Positions 11,665-59,621 of a stretch of 64,000 nt of DNA are shown here, piece after piece. The stretch spans positions 1,987,957-2,051,956 of the forward strand of contig OZ242348.1 in the NCBI GenBank assembly GCA_965208625.1, in the 5' to 3' direction. The notes beneath the pieces were generated by a model. It saw only the letters and a list, made by a program, of their open reading frames with translations. It did no database searches and was not told the DNA's origin. Position 1 is the stretch's first letter. The number at the start of each line of letters is the position of its first letter. The DNA comes from Dehalococcoidia bacterium. GTDB taxonomy: Bacteria > Chloroflexota > Dehalococcoidia > Lucifugimonadales > Australimonadaceae. A program made the translations under genes and the position numbers.

Positions 11665-12411
11665 ATGGATAAGCAAGACGCTGCCGAGATAGTCCAGATC
11701 GAGAAAGTGTTCAAGCGATTCGGCGACTTTACCGCCCTCAAAAGTGTGGACCTGTCCGTGCGTGAGGGGGAAGTTGTCGTCATCATCGGTCCGTCCGGCT
11801 CCGGCAAGTCCACCCTGCTGCGGACCATCAACCAGTTGGAGAAGCACGATCAGGGACGGATCGTCGTCGATGGCATAGAACTGACCGACGACGCGCGAAG
11901 CCTGCAGCGTATACGCGCCGAGATCGGCATGGTGTTCCAGCAGTTCAACCTCTTCCCACACCTCACCGTTTTGCGGAACATCACCATCGGCCCGCAGAAG
12001 GTTCGGCACATGCCGAGGCAGGAGGCGGAAGAACTCGCTCTGCAACTCCTCACGCGGGTGGACATCCCCGAGCAGGCCGACAAGTACCCCGGTCAGCTCT
12101 CGGGCGGACAGCAGCAACGTGTCGCCATCGCTCGTGCACTGGCCATGAATCCCCGATTGATGATGTTCGACGAACCGACTTCGGCGCTTGACCCGGAGAT
12201 GATCAACGAGGTGCTGAAGGCCATGATGGAACTCGCGGCCGACGGCATGACCATGATCTGCGTCACCCACGAGATGGCCTTCGCGCGCAACGTGGCTGAC
12301 CGCGTCATCTTCATGGATGAAGGCGAGATCGTGGAGATGAGCACCCCGGAGGAGTTCTTCACCAACCCCAAGGAAGAGCGCGCCAAGGCCTTCCTCGACC
12401 AGATCCTCTAA
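11665..12411 (+). CDS. aapP: Amino-acid ABC transporter ATP-binding protein (AapP/GlnQ-like)
   Basis: 248 aa. Walker [10 protein letters not shown], signature [15 protein letters not shown], Walker [12 protein letters not shown]. Confidence 0.9.
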
Positions 12412-12423
12412 CGCGCTCCTACA

Positions 12424-14187
12424 TCACCAGTAGAACGGGCTGTCCTTCAACCACTCCAGTTGGTGGTACTCGAGGAAAGTAACGAGCGCATAGCGCCGAC
12501 TGCTGTCCGTCAGCCCGAATCCGTCCGCGTCCTGGATCTCAGCCGTTAAACGCCAGCCGACCAGGATGTTGTCGTTCCACAACAGCCTGTCGGTGTCCCA
12601 CAAGCGCTGGTGGTTCACACCCCCCACAACACGAGCCCCGCTGTCTACCACCTGGTTGTACACGCCCGTTGATGCAAGCGCGTCAACATCGACCGAGCCG
12701 TCTATGTGCGTCTCATACAGATGACCGAGCCCGGCAGCATAGTGCAGGAGTTCGTGCAGGGCAGCAACCAGATAGTGGTCGTTGCTGCTCGTTGCGACCT
12801 CCGCCCCTATGAGGAAGTGAGTGTTGTAGGCCACTCTCAACGCGATGCCCGGCCCCGGACTCGACCATCCGCCCGGCTCGGCGACGAGCACAACCGCTTC
12901 ATCCGATGAGCAGAATCGCCCGCAGAAATCGATGGGGGGAGCGTGCGGGTCATTCAAGTGAGGAATCTTTTCGATGGCACTGATCTCCATGTTGATGCCC
13001 AAACGCTCGGCGAGTTCAACCAGCCGATCGAGCCGCTGGGCGAAGGCTTCGTTGGGCTGCGTGGTTGCATTGACGACTTTCAACCGTACTTTGTCGTCCA
13101 AATCGTTGCGCGTCTTGATGACCACCACGACGGGTGAGTTGCTTGCTCCCGCGACGCGCTCCACGGTGAATCTCCACTCGCCTGGAACCACCACTTCATC
13201 GTAAGAGAAGCTGCGGTCAGAGGTAGCTTGTGTAAGGGCGACCGAGTGACCTCGCAATAGCCTGATCCGCGCAGGGTGGCGATCGTTGACAAAAGCCGCC
13301 ACATGATCTTTCCCGTTCGGATCTGTCAACTCAGTCAGTCTGTAGCCAGGAGTTACGAGTTGGAAGGAGCGTGCGCCTTCAGGCACTGTGAAGGAACCCG
13401 ATAGACCCCCTGCTCCCGTTAGCGGCACTTCATGACGCACGACCTGGCCATCATCCAGCGATGTAAGGCCGATACCTTGGCCAAGGATGAGATCTTCTGC
13501 AGGGACGAACAGGTGCGGCAGCGTGTATTCGCCCTCCAGATAGACGGCGTACTCCGTGATGCTCCCATCGCCAAGACACCCGGCGATGCCGGGCAACAGT
13601 TCCTCGACGTACGTTCCGGTGCATTCATTTCTGTAGCGTTCAGCACAGTCGAACCCGTCAACGATGTGGTCGTCAGTGCAGGCATGGTCTTCTGAAGAAC
13701 CGAAGAAGTAGACCGCTCTATTGGATATGACGGCGTCATCCTTGAATTGGAGACGGGGATACTCCTCAAGGAGTCCCGCCAGGTTGTACTTCACATAGGG
13801 GTCGACGCCGGGGATGTAGACCTCCGTTTCCTCTGGCCAAGGAGTCGGTGTCGGATAAGGTGTCGACGTTGGCCACGGCGACGGTATCGGAGCAGGAGTG
13901 GGAGTCTGCGTCGGTGTAGCAGTCGCTGTCGGAATCAGCGTCGGGGTCGGAGTCGGCGTGGCCGTTGGGGTTGCAGTGGGCGTCGCCGTCGGTCCAGGCG
14001 TAGGTGTAGGCATCGGCGTCAAGGTAGGAGTAGGAGTCAGTGTGGGTGTAGGCGCCGATGTAGGGGACGGTGTTGCCACCGGCTCGGGCGTGGGTGTAGG
14101 CGGGTTCTGGCAGGCCCCAACGCCGAATGCAGTCAACAACACCAGGGAAGCAACCCACGCGCTCGTTCCAACGTTGCCCAACCGCAT
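12424..14187 (-). CDS. Secreted lipoprotein with ~100-aa Pro/Thr linker and C-terminal HExxH (metzincin-like [12 protein letters not shown]) putative zinc peptidase domain
   Basis: Start taken at Met60 of ORF 12424..14364 (ATG 14187, AGGAGG SD upstream). [26 protein letters not shown] is a signal peptide plus lipobox, followed by the PT-rich linker. HELLH..G..H lies near the C-terminus. Confidence 0.7.
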
Positions 14188-14212
14188 CGAGCCTCCTACG
14201 CTTCCGCCGCAC

Positions 14213-14818
14213 TCAGACCAACGACCGCCGCATGACATGCCGCCGCTTCCCCGCGCGGCCCACTTCCGAGAACCCGTGCGCTTCGAAGACCGGGATGAAC
14301 CCACAGAAGCGGTAGCTCGGCCCGTCGGGCGGAACGGGGTACGCCTCGATGACGGACCCTCCATGCTCGCGAGCGTGCCGCGCCGCCTCCTCGATGAGGC
14401 GGTCCATCAGCCCGCGATGCCTGAATGCGTTCCGCACGTAGAAACAGGTGAGCGACCAGATCGTGCTCTCGTCCTCCCCCGGCTCCTCCACGCCCCCGAG
14501 GCCAACGAACGTCTCCCGAGGCGCGACCGAGCACCACGCAGCGGGCTCGCCGTCCACGTAAGCCAGCAGGCCCACGCGACCTCCGCCCGCGATCCTCTGC
14601 CGCATCGCCTCCTTCATGTGGGCGCGGTCGTGCGGCATCCTGCCGTCGGCGTCCCTGCGCCACATCCGGCACCAGCACCACCTGGGCCCGCCGCGCGATT
14701 CGAACAGTCGCTCGAAATCGGGCCAGCGCGCGGCGTCCACCTCGCGCACTGCTATCGCGTCCGGGCTGCTCGTTGGGGGAGTCCCTGTCATAAGATGAGG
14801 GATATACTCCTCTCTCAC
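14213..14818 (-). CDS. GNAT family N-acetyltransferase
   Basis: 201 aa. [17 protein letters not shown]...[28 protein letters not shown] is the acetyl-CoA-binding R-x-x-G-x-[AG] region. The start is uncertain (alternative ATG at 14791). Confidence 0.75.
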
Positions 14819-35796: not shown

Positions 35797-36098
35797 GGCA
35801 AGCTTCCTCCTCCGTCAAGGTCGGGCCTTCCGGTTCATCGCTGGCAGCAGTCTAACGCAGCAGCAGATGGCTCACGATGAACACCCAGACGACCTGCGAT
35901 GAGCGCTTCTGCGCGCCCGCGAGCGTGGGTGGTGCGGAATGACCGTGCTGCTTCACTCGTGCGGGCGGGTGCGACAGGAGTAGGCCTGCGAATGCCCCTG
36001 TAACATTCCGCAACATTCAGCAACATGCCACCTCTGGCAGCGCCGGCCGGTGTTGTGCAGGGTGGGACACTCCAGGACATTGCGGGACACGGGACAGC

Positions 36099-36126
36099 GG
36101 CGATGGCGTAAGGGCCGCGTGTCACA
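36099..36126 (-). repeat. Dispersed intergenic repeat, copy C (reverse orientation)
   Basis: The minus strand reads TGTGACACGCGGCCCTTACGCCATCGCC, 24/28 identical to 58259-58286. Confidence 0.6.
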
Positions 36127-36173
36127 GAGGAGGTGGTGCGTCCGACCCGAATGAGCGAAGTAGAAGCCGCGCC

Positions 36174-36202
36174 TTGAAATTGGACACATATATGTTTACA
36201 AT
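36174..36202 (+). promoter_or_regulatory. Candidate promoter and operator of the higBA-like module
   Basis: TTGAAA (36174-79)-N17-TACAAT (36197-202). A perfect 10-bp palindrome ACATATATGT (36186-36195) sits inside the spacer. About 77 nt upstream of ATG 36279. Confidence 0.55.
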
Positions 36203-36278
36203 CTAGTCTATCCTCACTGGGGTAGGAGGTGACGGATGCTGAACACGAATACCAGATCAAGGAGAATGAGGACTTGTA

Positions 36279-36620
36279 ATGTCCTGGGAAATCCTACTCC
36301 ACTCCGACCATCGGGGGCGTTCTCGAGTAGAGGACTACATCCGGGAACTGCATCGCTCTGGTGACCGCTCCGCGGTAGCGACTCTCCAACGCTACATCGA
36401 ACTGCTGGAAGAGAACGGCCCCAATCTGGGGATGCCCCAGGACCGGATACTCGATGCCCGCATCGGTCTCTATGAACTGCGTGCAGGCAACCACCGCGTG
36501 GCGTACGGTGAAGCCCACGGGATGCTGTACCTGCTCGAAGCGTGGAGGAAGCAGGGACGCAGAGCCCCAGTAGAAAGTGTCGACCGTGCCAGGAGGACCC
36601 TGCTCCAAGTGAGGGAGTAA
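36279..36620 (+). CDS. RelE/ParE-superfamily toxin (HigB / phage Gp49-like)
   Basis: 113 aa, AAGGAG SD. ..LGMPQDRILDARIGLYELRAGNHRVAYGE..LYLLEAWRK is the Gp49/HigB-like pattern. The toxin-first order with an XRE antitoxin downstream is typical of higBA. Confidence 0.75.
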   Translation: MSWEILLHSDHRGRSRVEDYIRELHRSGDRSAVATLQRYIELLEENGPNLGMPQDRILDARIGLYELRAGNHRVAYGEAHGMLYLLEAWRKQGRRAPVESVDRARRTLLQVRE

Positions 36621-36625
36621 CAATC

Positions 36626-36934
36626 ATGCGTACCGCAAAGGAACTGTTCCAGGAACTCCATGACCAAGACCCCGAACTACGGCGTGAATACGACCGGCTG
36701 GCGCCCCGGTTCGCCCTGATCGACGCGCTGGTCAAAGCGAGGAAGCAGCACCAACTTACCCAACGCGACCTTGCCGAGCGCATCGGCGTGACCAAGACTG
36801 TCATCAGCCGTGTAGAGTCCGGAAAGCACAGCCCCCGCTTGGAGATGGCATACGACATCGCAAATGCGATCGGCCTGCGCCTCGACATCCGATTGGTGGA
36901 AGACAACGCCGCGCAGGGTACTGAACCCCGCTAG
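36626..36934 (+). CDS. XRE-family HTH antitoxin (HigA-like)
   Basis: 102 aa, starting at Met29 of ORF 36542..36934. LTQRDLAERIGVTKTVISRVESGKHSPRLEMAYDIANAIG is an HTH_XRE domain. Confidence 0.8.
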   Translation: MRTAKELFQELHDQDPELRREYDRLAPRFALIDALVKARKQHQLTQRDLAERIGVTKTVISRVESGKHSPRLEMAYDIANAIGLRLDIRLVEDNAAQGTEPR

Positions 36935-37011
36935 GGCAACCGTTCCGTACAGCTCACGCCAGTTGCAGTCCCCCCCTGCAACACCCGCTCCTTCCGCCCC
37001 AGGAACCCCGC

Positions 37012-38205
37012 CTACCTCTTCCCCGACAGCCCCGTGAGGAGCGTCCCCCGGTCGATCTCCCCGAGCAGGCTCCCGTGCTCCCCGACCACCGCGATGGGGT
37101 ATTCGGTCTCGGCTGCCATCGGAACGACCTCCTCGATGAACGCATCCGGGTCCGTGGTGACTGCCAGGACGAGGTGGGCCTCTTCCAGGGACTCCTTCCG
37201 CTGGAGGAGCAGCTCCCTCGCCTCCGCCGCCGTCAGCATCCCCTTGAGGGTGAAGTCACGTGCGATGAGGAACACCGCGTCGAGGCCATGCTGGTTCATC
37301 GCGTACAGCGCGACGCGGGGGCCCTGCCGTTCGTACATGACCACGCCGGGCTCCTGCATGATGGCCTTCGCCTGGATGACCTTCGCCCGCGACACGTCCC
37401 GCACGAAGTCGGTGACGTAGGCGTCGGTGGGCAGCGTAACGACCTCCTCGGGCGAGCCCATCTGGATGATCTCGCCGTCCCGCATGATCGCGATGCGGTC
37501 GCCCATCTTGAGGGCCTCGTTCAGGTCGTGTGTGATGAACACGATGGTCTTCTGCAGCTCCGTCTGGAGGGTGAGGAGCTCGTCCTGCATCTCCCTCAGT
37601 ATGAGCGGGTCGAGCCCGCTGAATGGCTCGTCCATGAGCAGCACGGTGGGGTTGGTCGCCAGCGCCCTGGCGAGGCCGACGCGCTGCTGCATCCCGCCGC
37701 TCATCTGATTGGGGTGGTTGTGCTCCCAACCCTCCAGCCCCACGACTCTGATGGCATCCAGCGCAGCCTCGTACCTCTGTTCCCTGTCCATGCCTCGCAC
37801 TTCCAGCCCGTACACCACGTTGTCGATGACGTTGCGATGCGGGAGGAGGCCGTAGTGCTGGAAGACCATGGCGGTCTTGCTGCGCCGGAACTCCACCAAC
37901 TGATTTGCGGAGTAGCCCTGGATATCCTCGCCGTCGAAACAGACCTGCCCCGCGGTGGGCTCAGTGAGCCTGAGGAGGCAGCGCACCAGGGTGGACTTGC
38001 CGCTGCCGGACAGGCCCATGACCACGAAGACCTCTCCGGTGTCAACGGTGAAGGAAACGTCACGGAGTCCGACGACGACGCCCAGCGCTCGCCGTATCTC
38101 CTCGCGGGTCATGGACTCGCACTCCGGCTGCAGGGCGGCCTCCGGGTTTTCGCCGAACACCTTCCAGAGGTTACTGACCTCTATCCGACCACTGCCCTGC
38201 CCCAT
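37012..38205 (-). CDS. Glycine betaine/proline-type ABC transporter ATP-binding protein with C-terminal CBS pair (ProV/OpuAA-like)
   Basis: 397 aa. GLSGSGKST, MSGGMQQRVGLARAL, LLMDEPFSGLD, then a CBS-like tail. No cognate permease or SBP gene adjacent. Confidence 0.85.
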   Translation of the reverse strand: MGQGSGRIEVSNLWKVFGENPEAALQPECESMTREEIRRALGVVVGLRDVSFTVDTGEVFVVMGLSGSGKSTLVRCLLRLTEPTAGQVCFDGEDIQGYSANQLVEFRRSKTAMVFQHYGLLPHRNVIDNVVYGLEVRGMDREQRYEAALDAIRVVGLEGWEHNHPNQMSGGMQQRVGLARALATNPTVLLMDEPFSGLDPLILREMQDELLTLQTELQKTIVFITHDLNEALKMGDRIAIMRDGEIIQMGSPEEVVTLPTDAYVTDFVRDVSRAKVIQAKAIMQEPGVVMYERQGPRVALYAMNQHGLDAVFLIARDFTLKGMLTAAEARELLLQRKESLEEAHLVLAVTTDPDAFIEEVVPMAAETEYPIAVVGEHGSLLGEIDRGTLLTGLSGKR

Positions 38206-38414
38206 GTTCGGATGGCTCCCATCGAATGGACCAATCCAACCCGATACTTACAGGATAGTAACGTTTAACGCCAATCGCAATGGGAATATACTCCGAAATA
38301 CGGCCTGTCTCCGGCATATTGTTCGGAATCAGCAGCACCGCGCTGCCACAGGCAGGACATGGGCGGTCGGCAGCTGCAGGCTGAGGGCGTGGCAGGGGCG
38401 ATGAGTGACTCTGC

Positions 38415-38525
38415 GACATCCGCCCCTTACGCGGTCGCCCCGCTCCCCGTTACGCTGGTTGCATGACCTTGCCCGCGGCCCACCACCAGCCCGATGCAGC
38501 AAGATGAACACCGGTGAGCGCACCC
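38415..38525 (+). repeat. Dispersed intergenic repeat, copy A
   Basis: GACATCCGCCCCTTACGC (38415-38432) is identical to 58262-58279. A downstream module GAACACCGGTGAGCGC (38506-38521) matches GAACACCCGGTGAGCAG (58380-58396). Confidence 0.6.
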
Positions 38526-38710
38526 AATCTTTGAATTTCGAGTGGAATCTTGATGCCTTGAACACGGGAAGCAGACCACGGCCTTGGAAACACCCCGATT
38601 CAAGGAGTTCAAGAGCCTCATTTCGGGCATGCGATTCACTCGTAAAAGGGCGTTCAAGATCTCAAAAGGAGGGTAGGTTTGGAATCTTGATCGGCGCCCA
38701 GGGCGCGGTT

Positions 38711-38815
38711 GTCATTCCGAGCGAAGCCGAGGAATCTCTCGGGAGACGCCCCGTCGTGTGCCGACGCTTCCCCGAGAGATGTTTCGACTCCGCCTCTGGC
38801 TCCGCTCAACATGAC
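38711..38815. repeat. MITE/REP-like long imperfect inverted repeat (GTCATTCC...-type element)
   Basis: Left arm GTCATTCCGAGCGAAGCCGAGGAATCTCTCGGG; right arm CCCGAGAGATGTTTCGACTCCGCCTCTGGCTCCGCTCAACATGAC. The core TCTCTCGGG/CCCGAGAGA is perfect. Non-coding, 68 nt upstream of leuS. Confidence 0.6.
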
Positions 38816-38882
38816 ATCATCCCACGCCTGACCGCTATCCGCTAAACTGATACTCCACAGTTCCTGACCCTCGGAGCGATAC

Positions 38883-41360
38883 ATGACCACCCGCCAGCGC
38901 ATGGCCCCCCTCCGCTACAACCCTGCGGAGATCGACCGCAAGTGGCAACAGCGGTGGGCCGACGACAACCTCTACCAAGTGAACGACGACGACCCCCGGC
39001 CGCGGTGGTACGCCCTCACCATGTACCCCTACCCCTCCGGCGACCTCCACATCGGCCACTGGTACGCCATGGCGCCGTCCGACGCCCACGCCCGCTTCAT
39101 GCGGATGCGCGGCTACAACGTGCTGCATCCCATGGGGTTCGACGCGTTCGGCCTTCCGGCTGAGAACGCCGCCATCAGCCGGGGCATCCACCCGTTCATC
39201 TGGACGATGGGAAACATCGACCGTATGCGCGCCCAGCTCCGCTCCATGGGCACGGTCTACGACTGGGACAGGGAAATCGTCACCTGCCAGCCAGACTACT
39301 ACGCTTGGAACCAGTGGTTCTTCCTCAAGATGTACGAGCAGGGCCTCGCCTACCGCGCATCCGCCCCCGTCAACTGGTGCCCCACCTGCCAGACCGTGCT
39401 CGCCAACGAGCAGGTCGTCGACGGGAAGTGCGAGCGCACTGGCGACGTCGTCATCCGCCGCGAGATGGACCAGTGGTTCTTCCGCATCACCAACTACGCC
39501 GACGAACTGCTGGACTTCTCCGGCGTCGTCGACTGGCCCGAACGCATCAAGACGATGCAGACCAACTGGATAGGCCGCAGCGAGGGCGTCGATATCTCGT
39601 TCGACATCTCGGAGTACGGCCTGGACGAACGCGAGATAACGACGTTCACGACGCGCATCGACACCATCTTCGGCGTCACGTTCGTCGTTCTCGCGCCGGA
39701 GCACCCGCTCGTCGAGCGGCTCACGACGCCGGAGCAGCGCGACGCCGTCGAGGCGTACGTCGCCCGCGCCCGCGAGGCGACCGAGATAGACCGCCTCTCC
39801 GTCGAACGGGAGAAGACCGGCGTCTTCACCGGCTCGTATGCGGTCAACCCGCTCAACGGCGACCGCGTGCCCATCTGGGTGGGCGACTATGTGCTCCTCA
39901 CCTACGGCACCGGCGCGGTGATGGGCGTCCCCGCCCACGACTCGCGCGACTTCGACTTCGCCCTCAAGTACGGGCTGGAGATCCGCGTCGTCGTCGCGCC
40001 GCCGAACTGGAACGGCACGCCGCTCCGGGAGGCGTGGGTCGAGAAGAGCGGCTCGCAGGTCAACTCCGGGCAGTTCAACGGCATGCCGAACGCCGCCGGG
40101 TACGAGGCCATTGCCGACCACGTCGAGCAGCAGGGATGGGGCAGGCGCACCGTCGGCTACCGGATGCGCGACTGGCTCATCAGCCGCCAGCGCTATTGGG
40201 GCACGCCCATCCCCATCGTCTACTGCGATAACTGCGGCGCGCAGCCCGTGCCGTACGACCAGCTCCCTGTCGTCCTGCCCGACGACGCCGAGTTCAAGCC
40301 GACCGGCGAGTCGCCGCTCCGCTACCACGACGGCTTCCTCCACACGACCTGCCCCGCCTGCGGCGGCCCCGCGACCCGCGAGACCGACACGATGGACACG
40401 TTCGTGGACTCGTCGTGGTACTTCCTGCGCTACGTCAGCCCCGACTTCGCCGAGGGACCGTTCGACCCCTCGCGCGTCGACTCGTGGAACCCCGTCGACC
40501 AGTACACGGGCGGCGCGGAGCACGCGGTGATGCACCTGCTCTACGCCCGCTTCTTCACAAAGGTCGTCCGCGACCTCGGCCTCATCGACTTCGGCGAGCC
40601 GTTCCTGCGCCTCTTCAACCAGGGCACCGTGCTCTCAGACCACATGAAGATGAGCAAGAGCCGCGGCAACGTCATCGCCCCGGACGAGTACGTGAAGGAC
40701 CTCGGCGCGGACGTCGTGCGCCTCTACCTGATGTTCATGGGCCCGTGGGAGGGCGGCGGCGACTGGAGCGACTCCGGCATCAACGGCGTCGCGCGCTGGG
40801 TGAACCGCCTCTGGGACCTCTGCCTGAGGGACACCGATACGTTGCCCGAGGCCGAGGCCGCTTCCGATCGCGCCGTCATCCGCAAGACGCACCAGACGAT
40901 CCGCGGCGTCATCGAGAGCCTGGAGCGCTTCAAGTACAACACCGCCCTCGCCTCGATGATGGAGCTCACCAACGAGATGTCGCCCGCCTACGACGCCGGC
41001 GCCGTGTCGCGCCGCGCCTGGAACGAGGCCGTCGAGTCGCTGCTCCTCCTCCTCGCGCCGATGGGCCCGCACCTCGCGGAGGAGCTCTGGGAGCGCACGG
41101 GGCACCCGTACAGCGTCCACAACCAGCCCCTGCCCGAGTGGGACGAGACGCTCGCCGCCATCGAGGAGGCCACGCTCGTCGTGCAGGTGAACGGCAAGGT
41201 CCGCGACCGTATCGCCGTCTCCGCCTCGATCTCCGAGGGTGACGCCAGGGAAGCGGCGCTCACGTCGGAGAAGGTGGTCGCCTACACGGAGGGCAAGCAG
41301 GTCGACAAGGTCGTCTTCGTCCCTGGCCGCTACCTCGTCAGCGTCGTCGTCAAGGACTAG
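38883..41360 (+). CDS. leuS: Leucine--tRNA ligase
   Basis: 825 aa. HIGH motif (GDLHIGHWY), KMSKS (MKMSKSRGN), CP1 editing domain and zinc-knuckle cysteines. Confidence 0.97.
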   Translation: MTTRQRMAPLRYNPAEIDRKWQQRWADDNLYQVNDDDPRPRWYALTMYPYPSGDLHIGHWYAMAPSDAHARFMRMRGYNVLHPMGFDAFGLPAENAAISRGIHPFIWTMGNIDRMRAQLRSMGTVYDWDREIVTCQPDYYAWNQWFFLKMYEQGLAYRASAPVNWCPTCQTVLANEQVVDGKCERTGDVVIRREMDQWFFRITNYADELLDFSGVVDWPERIKTMQTNWIGRSEGVDISFDISEYGLDEREITTFTTRIDTIFGVTFVVLAPEHPLVERLTTPEQRDAVEAYVARAREATEIDRLSVEREKTGVFTGSYAVNPLNGDRVPIWVGDYVLLTYGTGAVMGVPAHDSRDFDFALKYGLEIRVVVAPPNWNGTPLREAWVEKSGSQVNSGQFNGMPNAAGYEAIADHVEQQGWGRRTVGYRMRDWLISRQRYWGTPIPIVYCDNCGAQPVPYDQLPVVLPDDAEFKPTGESPLRYHDGFLHTTCPACGGPATRETDTMDTFVDSSWYFLRYVSPDFAEGPFDPSRVDSWNPVDQYTGGAEHAVMHLLYARFFTKVVRDLGLIDFGEPFLRLFNQGTVLSDHMKMSKSRGNVIAPDEYVKDLGADVVRLYLMFMGPWEGGGDWSDSGINGVARWVNRLWDLCLRDTDTLPEAEAASDRAVIRKTHQTIRGVIESLERFKYNTALASMMELTNEMSPAYDAGAVSRRAWNEAVESLLLLLAPMGPHLAEELWERTGHPYSVHNQPLPEWDETLAAIEEATLVVQVNGKVRDRIAVSASISEGDAREAALTSEKVVAYTEGKQVDKVVFVPGRYLVSVVVKD

Positions 41361-50771: not shown

Positions 50772-50966
50772 ATGCTGAACGGCTGTACGACCACGCGCAT
50801 CTTCTGCCGCCCCAACTGTCCGCCGGGGCGCCGCACGAGACCCGACCACTGCGTCACCTTTGCAGACGAACGCGCGGCAGCCGAGGCGGGCTATCGCCCG
50901 TGCCGCGTCTGCACGCCGCTGGACGGCCCGCCCGGCCCCTGGGTCAGCAAGCGCGAGCGGGGCTAG
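50772..50966 (+). CDS. Stand-alone Ada-type zinc-binding domain protein
   Basis: 64 aa. IFCRPNCPPG....GYRPCRVC is a four-Cys Ada N-terminal-like pattern. Confidence 0.55.
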   Translation: MLNGCTTTRIFCRPNCPPGRRTRPDHCVTFADERAAAEAGYRPCRVCTPLDGPPGPWVSKRERG

Positions 50967-52141
50967 CCCAACCCGCGCTCCCGCCGCGCCTCTTCCGGCG
51001 TGATGATCCCCGCCTGCACGAGCGCCACCTGCCGCTTGGTGCGCTCGCTCTCGGTCTCCGACAGCGCCTCGACCTGCGCGAGGTCGAACGCCACCGACAG
51101 CCCCCGCGCCGACGGGCCGAGCCTCGGGATGAGCCCCTCGTTGATCGCGCCCGCGAGGAACGTCAGTTCCGGCACCATCGTCTTCTCCCAGAACATGCGC
51201 CGCGCCTCCCGCACGTTGTTGAGCGTCGCATGGCTGAAGTCCTCGAGCAGTGGCAGCGGCACGCCGTACACGCGGGCGACCCCTTCCAGGCTCCACCGCA
51301 GCCCGGCGAGCCACTCCATGTCCCGCTGGTTCAGCCCCAGCCGCTGCACGTCCCAACCGTCGCCGGTGACTAGCGGGCGATGCGCGCGGCCCGGCCCCGT
51401 GTGGCGCGCCTCCAGCCGCGAGTAGAAATCGTTGATCTGGCCATCGGTGACGGGCCCGCTCGCCCGGAAGACGAGGTCCTGTGGCTGCGCGCCGTTGCGA
51501 AAGAACTCCCGGTTGAACCGCAGCGCGTCCATGCCCATGTCGGCGGTGAGCCGCGCGGCTGCCATCGGCGCGAACCCGGCGAACTCCTCCAGCGGATTGA
51601 AGTAGCGGAACCAGACCACCTCCTCCGGCAGCAGCGCCGTCTCCCGTCCCCGCTCCTCGTAGACGAACCCCGCGACGTACCGCTCCGGGTCCCGCACGAC
51701 CCGCACGCGGTCGGGCCGCAGCGCCCATATCTCGTCCGGCATCGCGGAGGCAGACGCCTTCCTGGAACGCCCCAGGTACCAGAACGCGGCTCCCCACAGG
51801 CAGAGGTAGGTCTCTGTCGCGATGAGCAGGTCGCTCCTGCTCCACCAGCCGTTGACCGTGTCGAGCAGCCGCTGCGCCGGATGCTCCGGCCCCACCCATC
51901 GCGACGCGCCGGATGCGTCGACTTCCCGGACCTGCAGCGGCGGACGGGACGCCGCCTCTGCGCGCAGCTTCACCGCGGCGTACACGTCCGCGCTCCTCGC
52001 GTAGTACTCGCCGTAGCCGGTCGACTGCCACTCCGTGCCGACTCCCCTGTCCGGCGCCAGCGTCCGCAGCGCTGCGGCGAGCGGCGCGTTCGCCCGCCGC
52101 ACTGCGATACCGTCCATCACTTCCCGCAACGTTCCGAGCAT
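50963..52141 (-). CDS. Phage portal protein, HK97 family (isolated)
   Basis: ORF 50963..52156. The ATG at 52141 has GAGGAGGGAG immediately upstream. Portal-family pattern throughout (..YARSADVYAAVKLRAEAASRPPLQV..., ..FRYFNPLEEF..., ..WDVQRLGLNQRDMEWL.., ..VYGVPLPLL..). Confidence 0.75.
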   Translation of the reverse strand: MLGTLREVMDGIAVRRANAPLAAALRTLAPDRGVGTEWQSTGYGEYYARSADVYAAVKLRAEAASRPPLQVREVDASGASRWVGPEHPAQRLLDTVNGWWSRSDLLIATETYLCLWGAAFWYLGRSRKASASAMPDEIWALRPDRVRVVRDPERYVAGFVYEERGRETALLPEEVVWFRYFNPLEEFAGFAPMAAARLTADMGMDALRFNREFFRNGAQPQDLVFRASGPVTDGQINDFYSRLEARHTGPGRAHRPLVTGDGWDVQRLGLNQRDMEWLAGLRWSLEGVARVYGVPLPLLEDFSHATLNNVREARRMFWEKTMVPELTFLAGAINEGLIPRLGPSARGLSVAFDLAQVEALSETESERTKRQVALVQAGIITPEEARRERGLG

Positions 52142-52189
52142 CTTCTCCCTCCTCACTCCTTGAAATCAGCGGTTGGTCGAGAAACGCGA

Positions 52190-52298: not shown

Positions 52299-53954
52299 TC
52301 ACCCTGCCGGTTCAGTCGCTACCGCTCCCGTACGGCCCACTGCGAAACGCTCGTCTTCCGGCGGCGACACTTGCCCATACGCATCCCGTCCCCAGCAGAC
52401 CGCTGTTCCATCGACCTGCAGCGCGCAGGTATGCACGCCGCCGCTGCTGATGGCCGCATATCGCGCGTTCGGGTCCGGCGGCGACGACTGTCCCTGCGCG
52501 TCGCTGCCCCAGCAGACGGCCGCGCCGTCCGACCGCAGTGCGCAGGTATGCCTTATGCCGCTGCTGATGGCGCTGAAGTTGACGCCTTGCGGTGGCGATG
52601 CCTGTCCCATCTCGTTGGCGCCCCAGCAGACGGCTGCGCCTTCGGTGTCGATGGCGCACGTGTGCAGTCCGCCTGCGCTGATGGCGGTGTACTTTCCGTC
52701 CTCCGGTGGCGTGGTCTGCCCGTAGCGAGCGTCGCCCCAGCAGACAGCCGTGCCGTCCCTGCGGAGCGCACACGTGTGCTGCCCACCGGCGCTGATTACG
52801 TCGAACCGCTCGTCCGGCGGCGGGTCGGCGCGCTTCAGCCCGTCCCAGTAGTCGGGGTCGGAGCTGGTGGGCGTGGGAGTCGGGACGCCTGCGAGTTCGG
52901 GGCCGTTGCTGCCCCAGCAGACGGCTGCGAAGTCACGGCGTATCGCACAGCCGTGGAGCGCGCCGACATCCAGACCGATGAAGAAGTCGCCCAGGCGTGG
53001 CGAGGTACGCACGAGCGGGGTCGACTGCCCCTCGCTGTCGTCGCCCCAGCAGAGCAACGTGGCGTCCGGGCGCAGCCCGCACGTGTTGAAACTGCCCGCG
53101 CTGATGGAGGTGAAGAGCAACTCTTCGGGTGGAAGCGGGTCGTCGTTCTCATCCTTCAGCTTCTCCGGCGACGACTGGTCGTAGACGTCGCTGCCCCAGC
53201 AGACGACGGTCATGTCCGGGCGGAGCGCGCAGGTGTGGTCGCCGCTGCTGCTCAGCGTCACGGGCTGGTTACGCCTTGAGAAGGTCGTGTCCCGGGGTGG
53301 GGGATCGCTTGCAGGCGCCTCGAGCGTCCACGTGCCGCAGCCGGGCAGGGAAACGATAGCGTGGTCGGTCGGCAGGATGGCAACACGCAGCACACCGCTG
53401 GAGGCCGAACCTGCGCCGATGATCTCGCCCTCGCTGGCCCGCACGGTGTGGGCGCGGGCCCACTCACAGTTCCCGGTGAGGCGCTCGCTCACGTACACGC
53501 CGGGAACGATGTCTACGCCTATCCGCCATCTGCCGGGCCCGAACGCCGTCCACGGCTTGGGAAGGGGAGTGGCCGTGGCAGTGGGGGTCGCCGTGGCGGT
53601 GGGCGTCGGCGTGTGAGTAGGCGGAACAGGGGTAGGTGTGCGGGTAGGTGGAACGGAAGTGGGCGTCGCTGTAGGAGGGACTGCGTTTGGGGTGGCAGTC
53701 GGATCCGGCTCCGGCGGAGGCGTCGGTGTCGGCACCGGGGTGAACGTGGGCATAGGCGTGGGCGTGGGGGTGCTCGTGGGAGTCGGCGTCGACTCCGGCG
53801 GGGGCGTCGGTGTCGGCTCTTCCGGCCTGCACGCCGACACAACGAGGAGCACCGCGCACAAGCTCGCGAGCGCGGCGCAGGGCAGGAGACCTCGCGAAGC
53901 GGCGCCTGCGAGGCGGGAGATGGGGAGGGTGCGTATAGGCGACATAACCCTCAA
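52299..53954 (-). CDS. Secreted RCC1-repeat (beta-propeller) protein with Pro/Thr linker
   Basis: 551 aa. Signal peptide/lipobox-like (LLVVSAC) and about 90 aa of PT-rich linker. About 7 repeats of the form HTCALRxDGxxVCWG. Confidence 0.8.
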   Translation of the reverse strand: MRVMSPIRTLPISRLAGAASRGLLPCAALASLCAVLLVVSACRPEEPTPTPPPESTPTPTSTPTPTPMPTFTPVPTPTPPPEPDPTATPNAVPPTATPTSVPPTRTPTPVPPTHTPTPTATATPTATATPLPKPWTAFGPGRWRIGVDIVPGVYVSERLTGNCEWARAHTVRASEGEIIGAGSASSGVLRVAILPTDHAIVSLPGCGTWTLEAPASDPPPRDTTFSRRNQPVTLSSSGDHTCALRPDMTVVCWGSDVYDQSSPEKLKDENDDPLPPEELLFTSISAGSFNTCGLRPDATLLCWGDDSEGQSTPLVRTSPRLGDFFIGLDVGALHGCAIRRDFAAVCWGSNGPELAGVPTPTPTSSDPDYWDGLKRADPPPDERFDVISAGGQHTCALRRDGTAVCWGDARYGQTTPPEDGKYTAISAGGLHTCAIDTEGAAVCWGANEMGQASPPQGVNFSAISSGIRHTCALRSDGAAVCWGSDAQGQSSPPDPNARYAAISSGGVHTCALQVDGTAVCWGRDAYGQVSPPEDERFAVGRTGAVATEPAG

Positions 53955-54105
53955 GGCACATTAGCGACGCGTCCCCTCTCAGTCAACGAGACAGCGCGGC
54001 CTGTTACACTCAACCCCATGCTGGGCCAACCGGCAACATGTGCGTCCCTCGCGATCTGAGCGTGGGGCGCTTATCTGCGTCTATCGGGTAACACGGAGGG
54101 GTCTC

Positions 54106-58288: not shown

Positions 58289-58357
58289 ACTGCCGCGTAC
58301 CCTGTCTCCGTACGGCGCGGTGTCGTGCCTGTGCACACCGGCCCCGCGCCGCCTCGG

Positions 58358-58493
58358 ATGAGCAGAAATGAGCAGTTTTGAACACCCGGTGAGCAGAAAA
58401 GAACAGCAAATGAGCAGCTATGAGCAGTCGGACTGCTCACGTCCAGGGCCGGATTCAGAGGTGAATCAGGGTGGGTGAGCAGAAATGAGCAGT
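58358..58493 (+). repeat. TGAGCAG heptamer array with palindrome, overlapping the start of the MetE-like gene
   Basis: Forward copies start at 58359, 58369, 58390, 58411, 58421, 58476 and 58486; an inverted copy lies at 58433-58439. The inverted copy creates the perfect palindrome TGAGCAGTC-G-GACTGCTCA (58421-58439). The 18-nt direct repeat TGAGCAGAAATGAGCAGT occurs at 58359-58376 and 58476-58493. Confidence 0.8.
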
Positions 58494-59621
58494 AATTCCC
58501 TAGAAAACCTTCCTGGCCTGCCCCATGCCGATGTCGTCGGCAGCATGATCAGGCCGGCGGAACTGCTGACTGCACGCGATGACCTCGACGCCGGGCGGAT
58601 CGCGCCTGCGGAGTTCAAGCGCATCGAGGACGCCGCCGTCGACCAGGCTGTCGCCGCACAGGAGGAGGCGGGGCTGGAGATACTGACCGACGGCGAGATA
58701 CGCAGGCTCTCGTTCCAGAGCCAGATGCCGGAGGCCGTCGAGGGCTTCGGCGAGTTCGACGTCGACGCGTTCCTCTGGGGCGATTGGAAGGGCGATGAAC
58801 GGGTCGGCGACCTGAAGAAGGAGCGCCCCTCCACGCTTGGCGTCACCGGTACGCTCCGGCGCAAGCGTCACCTCTCCGCTGAGGAGTTCACCTACCTGCG
58901 AGGCCGCACCACCCGCGTCGCCAAGGTAACGCTGCCGAGCCCCAGCCTCTTCGCCAACTTCTGGTCGCCCGCGAAGTCAGCATCGGCATACCCGACCCTC
59001 GACGCGTTCCTGGCCGACGTCGCGCAGATACTCCGGGAGGAGATCGAGGAACTCGTCCGGCTCGGCGCGACGTACATCCAGCTCGACGCCCCGCAGTACC
59101 CGCTCGTGCTGGACCCCACGTGGGCTGAGTTCTACCGGAGCCGTGGCTGGACGGCGGAAGACTGGGTCGCGCAGGGCGTCGAGTTGGACAACGCCGTCAT
59201 GGACGGCTTCTCGGATGTGACATTCGCCTTCCACCTCTGAAAGGGGAACCAGGGCAGCCGTTGGCTGGCCGAAGGAAGCTACGACCGGCTCGTCGAACCC
59301 GTGCTGCGCCGCGTGAACGCCCAGCGCCTCATGCTGGAGTACGACGACGAACGCTCAGGCTCGTTCGAGCCCCTGCGCGCCGTGCCCGACGACAAGACGG
59401 TCGTGCTCGGACTGGTGACGACCAAGTCGCCGCGCCCCGAGACGCCGGAAGAGCTTGCGGACAGGATCGCCGAGGCTGCACAGCACTTCCCCCGCGAGCA
59501 ACTGGGCGTGAGCCCCCAGTGCGGCTTCGGGACGTCCATCGTGGGCAACAAGCTCACCATCGCGGAGCAGAACGCGAAACTCCGCGTGGTCGCGGACACA
59601 GCACGGCTCGTCTGGGGATGA
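58485..59621 (+). CDS. Cobalamin-independent methionine synthase (MetE C-terminal-like, COG0620) family protein with one in-frame UGA at codon 252 (candidate Sec codon, or pseudogene)
   Basis: ORFs 58485..59240 and 59301..59621 share a frame, and no other stop lies between 59241 and 59621. Family landmarks: LTDGEIRR, IQLDAP, FHL-[UGA]-KGN (H-x-C position), MLEYDDE, SPQCGFGTS. Confidence 0.7.
59252..59270 (+). other. Stem-loop downstream of the in-frame UGA (possible SECIS-like element)
   Basis: GGGCAGCC-GUU-GGCUGGCC. 7 bp with one G.G mismatch; the apical GUU loop lies about 20 nt after UGA 59238-40. Short, so weak on its own. Confidence 0.3.

Follow-up and report, generated by a model that had tools for sequence, protein, structure and literature searches.

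Does an in-frame UGA codon within a bacterial methionine synthase-like gene end translation, or does it specify selenocysteine (Sec)? This question is raised by a 64,000-nucleotide (nt) stretch of DNA from a Dehalococcoidia bacterium (contig OZ242348.1, positions 1,987,957 to 2,051,956, assembly GCA_965208625.1), which is referred to here as the window and whose own numbering is used throughout. On its forward strand, at 58485-59621, lies a gene that contains an internal UGA as well as a terminal TGA and that, when read through, encodes a 378-amino-acid (aa) short MetE-like protein. A preliminary description had proposed this gene as a candidate selenoprotein, with a very young pseudogene as the null expectation. 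The first of these readings is supported by the position of the UGA at a metal-ligand column, by its recurrence in relatives, by selection on the region downstream of it and by synonymous sites that preserve a hairpin. The UGA of the window most likely marks a member of a widespread selenoprotein family, and it probably functions as a Sec codon.

A UGA codon at a predicted zinc-ligand column

The TGA at 59238-59240 closes an open reading frame (ORF) that begins at 58485, and the frame then stays open until the TGA at 59619-59621. Both the coordinates and the 378-codon read-through, first given in the preliminary description, were reproduced. The two halves are coding-like for this genome, with a G+C content at third codon positions (GC3) of 0.85 before and 0.87 after the UGA, and at second positions (GC2) of 0.45 and 0.46, respectively. 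When ORF pairs split by a TGA and with coding-like GC3 and GC2 values were sought, the MetE-like gene was the sole hit in the window; in the related loci, the hits outside the MetE-like family resembled shadow frames or adjacent genes and were not followed individually. A general reassignment of UGA was rejected, since many strong, high-confidence genes of the window terminate with TGA. Within the gene, 107 single-nucleotide routes lead to a stop, and just one of them falls at the UGA codon.

The read-through product matches the Pfam domain PF01717 (Meth_synt_2) over residues 17-351 (1.3e-21; 77.7 bits, cut-off 21), and the match spans profile positions 5-306 of 324, that is, most of the domain model. 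Its best solved relative is a Listeria protein, PDB 1ypx_A (4.4e-49, residues 14-378), whose record bears the name 'putative vitamin-B12 independent methionine synthase family protein'. The product is not a full-length MetE as defined by TIGR01371 and PRK05222, as it has 378 aa versus the approximately 750 aa of two-barrel proteins with an N-terminal folate-binding domain. The full-length models (750 aa) were matched at positions 416-601 alone, with about 52-53 bits versus cut-offs of 541 and 930. Scores also fell under the cut-offs of the curated NCBIfam families for YxjG-like methionine synthase II, PRK06520 and PRK06233 (NF005085, 235.1 versus 313 bits; NF004875, 210.6 versus 576 bits), and the protein therefore forms a separate subfamily, nearest to the YxjG/1YPX group and outside the curated NCBIfam families. 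In general terms, the predicted product is a short zinc enzyme related to MetE that consists of the catalytic barrel alone and belongs to the YxjG/1YPX-like 'methionine synthase II' type.

The UGA stands in the context FAFHL-UGA-KGNQGSRW and aligns with the Cys of HICRGN in 1ypx and with that of HFCYSD in the MetE of Candida albicans (3ppf). The preliminary description had placed it at the Cys of an H-x-C zinc motif; both alignments agree with this, and a non-Cys column was not found. In E. coli MetE, zinc is bound by His641, Cys643, Glu665 and Cys726, and homocysteine by S433, E484 and D599 (PMC7857596). The first of the corresponding ligands in the window is His250 (codon CAC, 59232-59234, forward strand like the others), followed by the UGA itself as predicted selenocysteine 252. 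The predicted third ligand is Glu285 in MLEYDDE (59337-59339), which aligns with the Glu of VSIEF in Candida MetE and with E. coli Glu665, and the predicted fourth is Cys346 in SPQCGF (59520-59522), which aligns with NPDCG of Candida MetE. Thus, the landmarks downstream of the UGA are intact, as had been claimed. The homocysteine-binding positions are kept as well, with VVGS20, DGE71 and QLD201 aligning to IGS, HGE and QVD of Candida MetE. All seven ligand and homocysteine positions (Ser20, Glu71, Asp201, His250, UGA252, Glu285 and Cys346) could therefore be aligned, and the translation has just two Cys positions (252, the UGA, and 346), each of them a predicted zinc ligand.

Recurrence of TGA and the downstream hairpin

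Relatives were collected by scanning one genome per species, which gave 80 homologous loci. The closest of these come from metagenome-assembled genomes (MAGs) of Dehalococcoidia and SAR202 bacteria, many of them from sponges. At the column of the UGA, 25 loci carry TGA, 45 carry TGC and 10 carry TGT. In every one of the 25 TGA loci, the TGA is followed by exactly 126 open codons. The pairwise ratio of non-synonymous to synonymous substitution rates (dN/dS) among the TGA forms is 0.107 before and 0.131 after the TGA, at a dS of about 1; the Cys forms give 0.101 upstream and 0.089 downstream of the same column. Given the conserved open frame and the low downstream dN/dS, the region after the UGA is translated and under purifying selection in the TGA-bearing species.

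The same pattern is found beyond these genomes. Thirty metagenome contigs match the combination of TGA and hairpin at 55-80% identity to the window protein, and an open frame of 125-132 codons is kept in 25 of the 26 that are not ended by the contig edge; in four contigs the UGA is followed by AAG (Lys), as in the window. Furthermore, a search of protein collections with the N-terminal 251 aa returned 71 new 90%-identity clusters, and 67 of these end at ...FHL or a close variant (...H-L/V/I), the point where gene callers halted at the TGA. TGA at the same column, which the preliminary description had marked as a point to check elsewhere, is thus present in species loci, metagenome contigs and clusters alike. 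Members of 243 aa and of 370 aa (with HLCRGN) share single 90% clusters at 91-93% identity, and switching between Sec and Cys in near-identical sequences is common in the family. As judged from these comparisons, Sec at this column would be old and widespread in SAR202/Dehalococcoidia and in other environmental lineages, with repeated flips between Sec and Cys.

In public gene calls, as observed for the protein clusters P0129, P0139 and P0125, the TGA forms appear as two proteins, an N-terminal one of 243 aa and a C-terminal one of 96-102 aa (e.g., P0207 and P0208). Some of the cut-off forms are labelled in JGI records as a complete '5-methyltetrahydropteroyltriglutamate--homocysteine methyltransferase', and many MAGs list the family as 243-aa cut-off 'methyltransferases'. 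The family is systematically mis-annotated in these gene calls. This affects gene calls and selenoproteome counts for SAR202, other Chloroflexota, sponge symbionts and a number of taxonomically unassigned soil and marine contigs.

Downstream of the UGA, folding gives a core hairpin resembling a selenocysteine insertion sequence (SECIS) at 59252-59270 on the forward strand, that is, nt 15-33 counted from the U of the UGA. Its fold, ((.(((((...))))).)), has 7 base pairs (bp), one G.G mismatch and a GUU loop, with a free energy of -12.5 kcal/mol. The pairs are G15-C33, G16-C32, C18-G30, A19-U29, G20-C28, C21-G27 and C22-G26; G17 and G31 remain unpaired, and G23, U24 and U25 (59260-59262) form the loop. 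Folding thus returned the hairpin of the preliminary description at the same coordinates and with the same shape, including the GU in the loop. The E. coli SECIS has its upper stem-loop 11 nt from the UGA, at nt 15-31, with a bulged U17 and with G23/U24 in the loop (PMC8659212). The spacing of the window hairpin and the positions of its loop G23/U24 equal those described for E. coli fdhF.

The hairpin is largely written by a conserved peptide, Q-G-S-R-W-L-A, and the choice among synonymous codons, rather than covariation, is the evidence relied on here. For this comparison, the 25 genomic TGA loci and the window make up 26 Sec forms, which are set against 55 Cys forms. The Arg codon that supplies G23-N24 is CGU in 23, CGG in three and CGC in none of the Sec forms, versus CGC in 34 and CGU in 11 of the Cys forms; CGU makes up 9.5% of the Arg codons elsewhere in the same genes. 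This bias towards U24 has a Fisher p of 4e-9, a value without correction for phylogeny. Similarly, GGC is the Gly codon at +5, the source of C18, in 24 of the 26 Sec forms versus 25 of the 55 Cys forms. Across the 26 Sec forms, pairing in the upper helix amounts to 98.4%. As for the covariation that had been suggested as a check, two compensatory pairs do occur in the helix (G-C to A-U, in loci L037 and L052), but the signal is weak, with 27-28 of 500 shuffles equalling it, because the region is constrained by coding.

The established Sec forms have an additional lower helix, in which nt 4-9 pair with nt 41-46, so that the whole element measures about 43 nt. This helix is drawn from the Arg codon after the UGA and from Gly-Tyr-Asp codons, and with it the minimum free energy (MFE) reaches -20.6 and -20.7 kcal/mol in two examples (L017 and L021, respectively). 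A scan of the window with Rfam at gathering thresholds and a permissive scan of 59180-59340 returned nothing relevant.

Origin of the window's TGA and competing explanations

The three closest relatives are syntenic with the window and have 93% (OY764542), 94% (DAOUHT01) and 95% (MPMJ01) nucleotide identity to it; the last is 'SAR202 cluster bacterium bin16' from the sponge Aplysina aerophoba. The window itself belongs to a SAR202/Dehalococcoidia genome of sponge type. In a neighbour-joining tree, built without bootstrap, TGA forms occupy the basal SAR202 groups and the whole of one large subclade, in which three small Cys islands are nested. A second subclade (L001-L016 and L042, with the motif HLCKGN) is all Cys save for the window, which is sister to OY764542 (L001). 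By parsimony, Sec would be ancestral, followed by a change to Cys in the HLCKGN clade and then by a regain of TGA in the window. Since the nearest relatives and the clade carry TGC, the TGA of the window is young, a recent, single C-to-A change within a Cys-type clade.

The background of this change is informative. Among the Cys forms of the clade, CGU at the Arg codon of the loop is found in one of 16, and that one is the sister OY764542. The TGA thus arose on a rare CGU (U24) background that is common only to the window and this relative. The window is also identical to the Sec-form consensus over nt 10-38, and its gene has no further stops, frameshifts or indels. Its terminal branch shows nine synonymous and four non-synonymous changes, and neutrality over the whole branch is rejected (p=0.002); six synonymous and two non-synonymous changes lie upstream of the stop, and three and two, respectively, downstream.

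Several observations weigh against a functional Sec codon in the window. TGC is the state not only of the three closest relatives but of the entire HLCKGN clade, a second instance of the window's allele was not found among metagenome contigs or protein clusters, and the exact 251-aa N-terminal product has no record in a large assembly collection. The branch counts barely discriminate, with a Bayes factor of about 2 for function versus a stop arising at a random time. All 7 bp of the hairpin are also found in 13 of 24 SAR202 Cys forms, because the conserved peptide encodes them, and the hairpin alone is therefore weak evidence. Moreover, the window lacks the lower helix (MFE -14.2 versus -20.6 and -20.7 kcal/mol in the two examples above), a window-specific GGC-to-GGG change costs that helix one pair, and the base after the UGA is A, where it is C in 25 of 25 genomic Sec forms; in the 55 Cys forms this base is C in 36 and A in 19. 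Finally, no Sec machinery is seen within the 64 kb. The preliminary description had held that Cys in close relatives, together with an unconserved hairpin and relaxed selection after the stop, would speak against Sec. The first of these is what OY764542, DAOUHT01 and MPMJ01 show; the downstream selection among the TGA forms and the synonymous sites that preserve the hairpin speak in favor of Sec.

The machinery was sought in several ways. The genes selA, selB, selC and selD were found neither in the window nor in approximately 1 Mb of related loci. Neither the window nor 52 related loci yielded a tRNA-Sec with ARAGORN, the SelA motif SGDK..GGPQ and the SelD motif G.GCG.K were not found in the same approximately 1 Mb, and Pfam searches of 30 window ORFs gave no sel genes. 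In published work on sponge symbionts, the MAG of the relative at 95% identity, bin16, is scored SelA=1, SelB=1 and SelD=1, the other four SAR202 bins of the study are likewise positive for SelA, SelB and SelD, and an enrichment of SelA and SelB among the bins of sponge symbionts is reported (Slaby et al. 2017, with the bin scores in Table S4; PMC5649159).

The strongest competitor is a very young nonsense allele, the null of the preliminary description, in which the C-to-A change turned the ligand Cys codon into a true stop and the gene is decaying, with a 251-aa fragment that would be without three of the four zinc ligands. The TGC state of all nearest relatives fits this explanation, as do the absent lower helix, the fourth base A instead of C and three more window-specific changes within 13 codons past the stop, and the branch pattern is compatible with a stop gained within roughly the final 30% of the terminal branch. 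Yet, of the 107 routes to a stop in this gene, the one taken lies at the very codon where a TGA under selection is found in 25 other species and in many metagenome lineages, and the change fell on the CGU background required by Sec forms, which one of 16 clade members has. No second lesion has accumulated, and neutrality of the whole branch is rejected, as noted above. The lineage is reported to have SelA, SelB and SelD, so that, with the core hairpin in place, some Sec insertion would be expected even for a 'random' TGA; other parts of the family have Sec and Cys forms side by side within single 90%-identity clusters. As for the nearby changes, equally dense clusters occur elsewhere in the gene when the three closest relatives are the sole references. 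Thus, the null keeps the TGC of the closest relatives on its side but is opposed by the CGU background, by SelA/B/D in bin16 and by the coexistence of Sec and Cys forms, and decay is an unlikely account of this gene copy.

Compared with ten clade relatives, four window-unique changes lie in the 14 codons at 59240-59277 (TGC to TGA, GGC to GGG at +2, GGC to GGA at +12 and GGC to AGC at +13), and 10 lie in the remaining 355 codons of the gene. The three changes after the TGA (p of about 0.008 with ten references) were considered as an adaptation of the SECIS or as error. They are not relied on, because similar clusters occur elsewhere in the gene with three references and because the changes do not improve pairing. 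The clusters elsewhere suggest a mosaic ancestry.

Two further explanations fare worse than a nonsense allele. The first is a sequencing, consensus or assembly artefact, in which the true codon is TGC and the A at 59240 reflects either an erroneous base call or a variant of a minority strain. The difference is a single base from relatives of 93-95% overall identity, the exact 251-aa product is missing from the large assembly collection, no other contig was found with the allele, and the three other unique changes lie close by. Nonetheless, the error would have had to hit one particular base among about 1,100 and to yield exactly the state that recurs biologically in this column, and the window-specific substitutions (70 in 6.1 kb, mostly transitions) look like ordinary divergence; an artefact is accordingly quite improbable. 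The second, that the UGA is read through as a residue other than Sec (Cys through a tRNA(Sec)-like tRNA, as in the Cys-for-Sec recoding systems that have been proposed from genome mining, or a near-cognate such as Trp), is the least credible of all: sequence data do not distinguish Sec chemically from another residue, but UGA is an ordinary stop for many high-confidence genes of the window, the hairpin geometry and G23/U24 loop are as expected of a SelB-dependent SECIS, and relatives are reported with SelA and SelD, which are needed solely for making Sec.

Proposed decoding, known relatives and genomic surroundings

If the UGA is a Sec codon, as seems probable, its decoding would follow the ordinary bacterial route. 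The mRNA hairpin 11 nt past the UGA would offer its loop G23/U24 to SelB carrying Sec-tRNA(Sec), this complex would compete with RF2 at the UGA, and Sec would be inserted at residue 252. The ribosome would then go on through the 126 codons that hold the Glu and the second Cys ligands. In the folded protein, the selenolate of Sec252 would coordinate the catalytic zinc along with His250, Glu285 and Cys346, and the zinc would activate a homocysteine-like thiol for methyl transfer, as in MetE (PMC7857596). Sec insertion in the source organism, the binding of zinc by the selenolate and a homocysteine-like substrate are predictions drawn from sequence comparison. Since the N-terminal folate-binding barrel is absent, the MetE mode of binding methyl-tetrahydrofolate triglutamate is unlikely here.

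There are two ideas, compatible with each other, about what Sec might contribute. As a softer and electron-richer ligand, it could make the zinc-bound thiolate more reactive or ligand exchange faster. It might also protect an oxidation-prone zinc-thiolate site. Hypochlorite stress leads to S-bacillithiolation of Cys730 in the zinc site of MetE, and B. subtilis YxjG also belongs to the S-bacillithiolated proteins (PMC4360819).

The exchange between Sec and Cys would require little beyond TGC<->TGA plus CGC<->CGU, as the QGSRWLA peptide in GC-rich codons already encodes the hairpin, and a flip would therefore need one or two point mutations. The family is for this reason a natural system for the gain and loss of Sec codons, since its Sec and Cys forms are more than 90% identical and the hairpin is encoded by conserved residues. 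The evidence tips slightly towards a broader reading in which an unlisted but widespread family uses a Sec zinc ligand in a MetE-type alkyltransferase (for thiol alkylation, not redox), QGSRWLA acts as a latent SECIS that permits toggling between Cys and Sec, and the window holds a fresh switch from Cys to Sec. Most of the bacterial selenoproteins known so far are redox enzymes, and selenium would, if this is true, be put to a different use as part of a Sec ligand of the Lewis-acid zinc in a MetE-like methyltransferase.

Comparison with bacterial selenoprotein genes that have their SECIS within the ORF, with E. coli fdhF as the prototype, shows both shared and distinct features. An in-frame UGA at a metal-ligand Cys column and pairs of Sec and Cys homologues are common to both, as are a hairpin 11 nt past the UGA with an unpaired position 17 and G23/U24, and a helix of about 40 nt in the established family members. 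By contrast, the MetE-like host family is outside published lists, the apical loop has just 3 nt (GUU), position 17 is part of a G.G mismatch here instead of a bulged U, and the window copy is without the lower helix. The metal also differs: the Sec of the fdhF product binds Mo, whereas zinc is the predicted Sec-bound metal in the MetE-like family.

Among the enzymes of the wider superfamily, MetE itself (E. coli and Candida albicans 3ppf) shares with the family, in its C-terminal domain, the PF01717 fold, the His-x-Cys...Glu...Cys ligands and the Ser/Glu/Asp homocysteine positions. Unlike MetE, the family has about 370 aa without the N-terminal folate-binding barrel, its similarity to MetE is weak (E of about 3e-11) and its first Cys ligand is predicted to be Sec. 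The YxjG/YxjH-type 'methionine synthase II' proteins (Listeria 1YPX; PRK06233/PRK06520) are the best full-length match and share the HxCRGN motif; in the searchable literature, no selenoprotein member of this group is described and no defined methyl donor was found. The MesA-MesD core (folate-independent) methionine synthases are likewise short, catalytic-domain-only MetE relatives with zinc and homocysteine residues. MesB comes from Dehalococcoides, and no Sec is mentioned for MesA-MesD (Price et al. 2021, PMC7857596). They differ from the family in that it scores 41-100 bits, versus 258-406, on short 'methionine synthase' NCBIfam models, which are themselves not equated with MesA-D, and in that the MetE-like gene has no adjacent corrinoid-protein or DUF1852 partner.

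No entry for the family was found in the 'complete list' of 87 prokaryotic selenoprotein families published in 2022 (PMC9312934, Table 1), in the GOS selenoproteome (PMC2398784), in a 2021 marine survey or in a 2026 review of the prokaryotic selenoproteome (PMC13188914). It was not found in a full-text literature search either, the scope of which did not extend to subscription literature. It would thus be a new selenoprotein family with ordinary bacterial decoding, and its status as undescribed is provisional.

The surroundings of the gene give no clue to a pathway, with mfd upstream and genes for ETF alpha/beta downstream on the other strand. Directly upstream, at 58356-58493, the heptamer TGAGCAG occurs eight times, seven times in direct and once in inverted orientation (58433-58439). 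The copies form four dyads, TGAGCAG-AAA-TGAGCAG, in a 10-bp phase, the last of which overlaps the ATG at 58485. Across the whole window, 27 copies are present versus 10.3 +/- 3.7 expected, and the cluster of eight makes up nearly half of the excess. The array is kept upstream of the TGC orthologues in OY764542 and MPMJ01, and it looks like a putative operator array for a regulator.

Elsewhere in the window, a gene for a phage portal protein (PF04860, 3.3e-62) is flanked by a nucleotidyltransferase gene and by a gene for an RCC1-repeat protein (PF25390/PF13540). This region, at 50963-52165 and 52299-53960 on the reverse strand, stands in an otherwise chromosomal context (an EF-G-like gene and mfd), and the portal gene may have been left behind by a prophage or may have been domesticated. 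Lower G+C values (0.59-0.60 versus about 0.67) are observed at 12400-14800 and 36000-38900, and the first of these segments has no ORF with a convincing coding signature. Between 14794 and 35814, seven Amidohydro_2 (PF04909) paralogues occupy about 21 kb, interleaved with genes for a TRAP transporter (DctP/DctM), a zinc alcohol dehydrogenase and a molybdoenzyme of the xanthine dehydrogenase family. A LigXa-like Rieske oxygenase is encoded at 1070-2365, and TRAP and ABC transporters are also present in the window. This paralogue-rich catabolic gene content is typical of SAR202.

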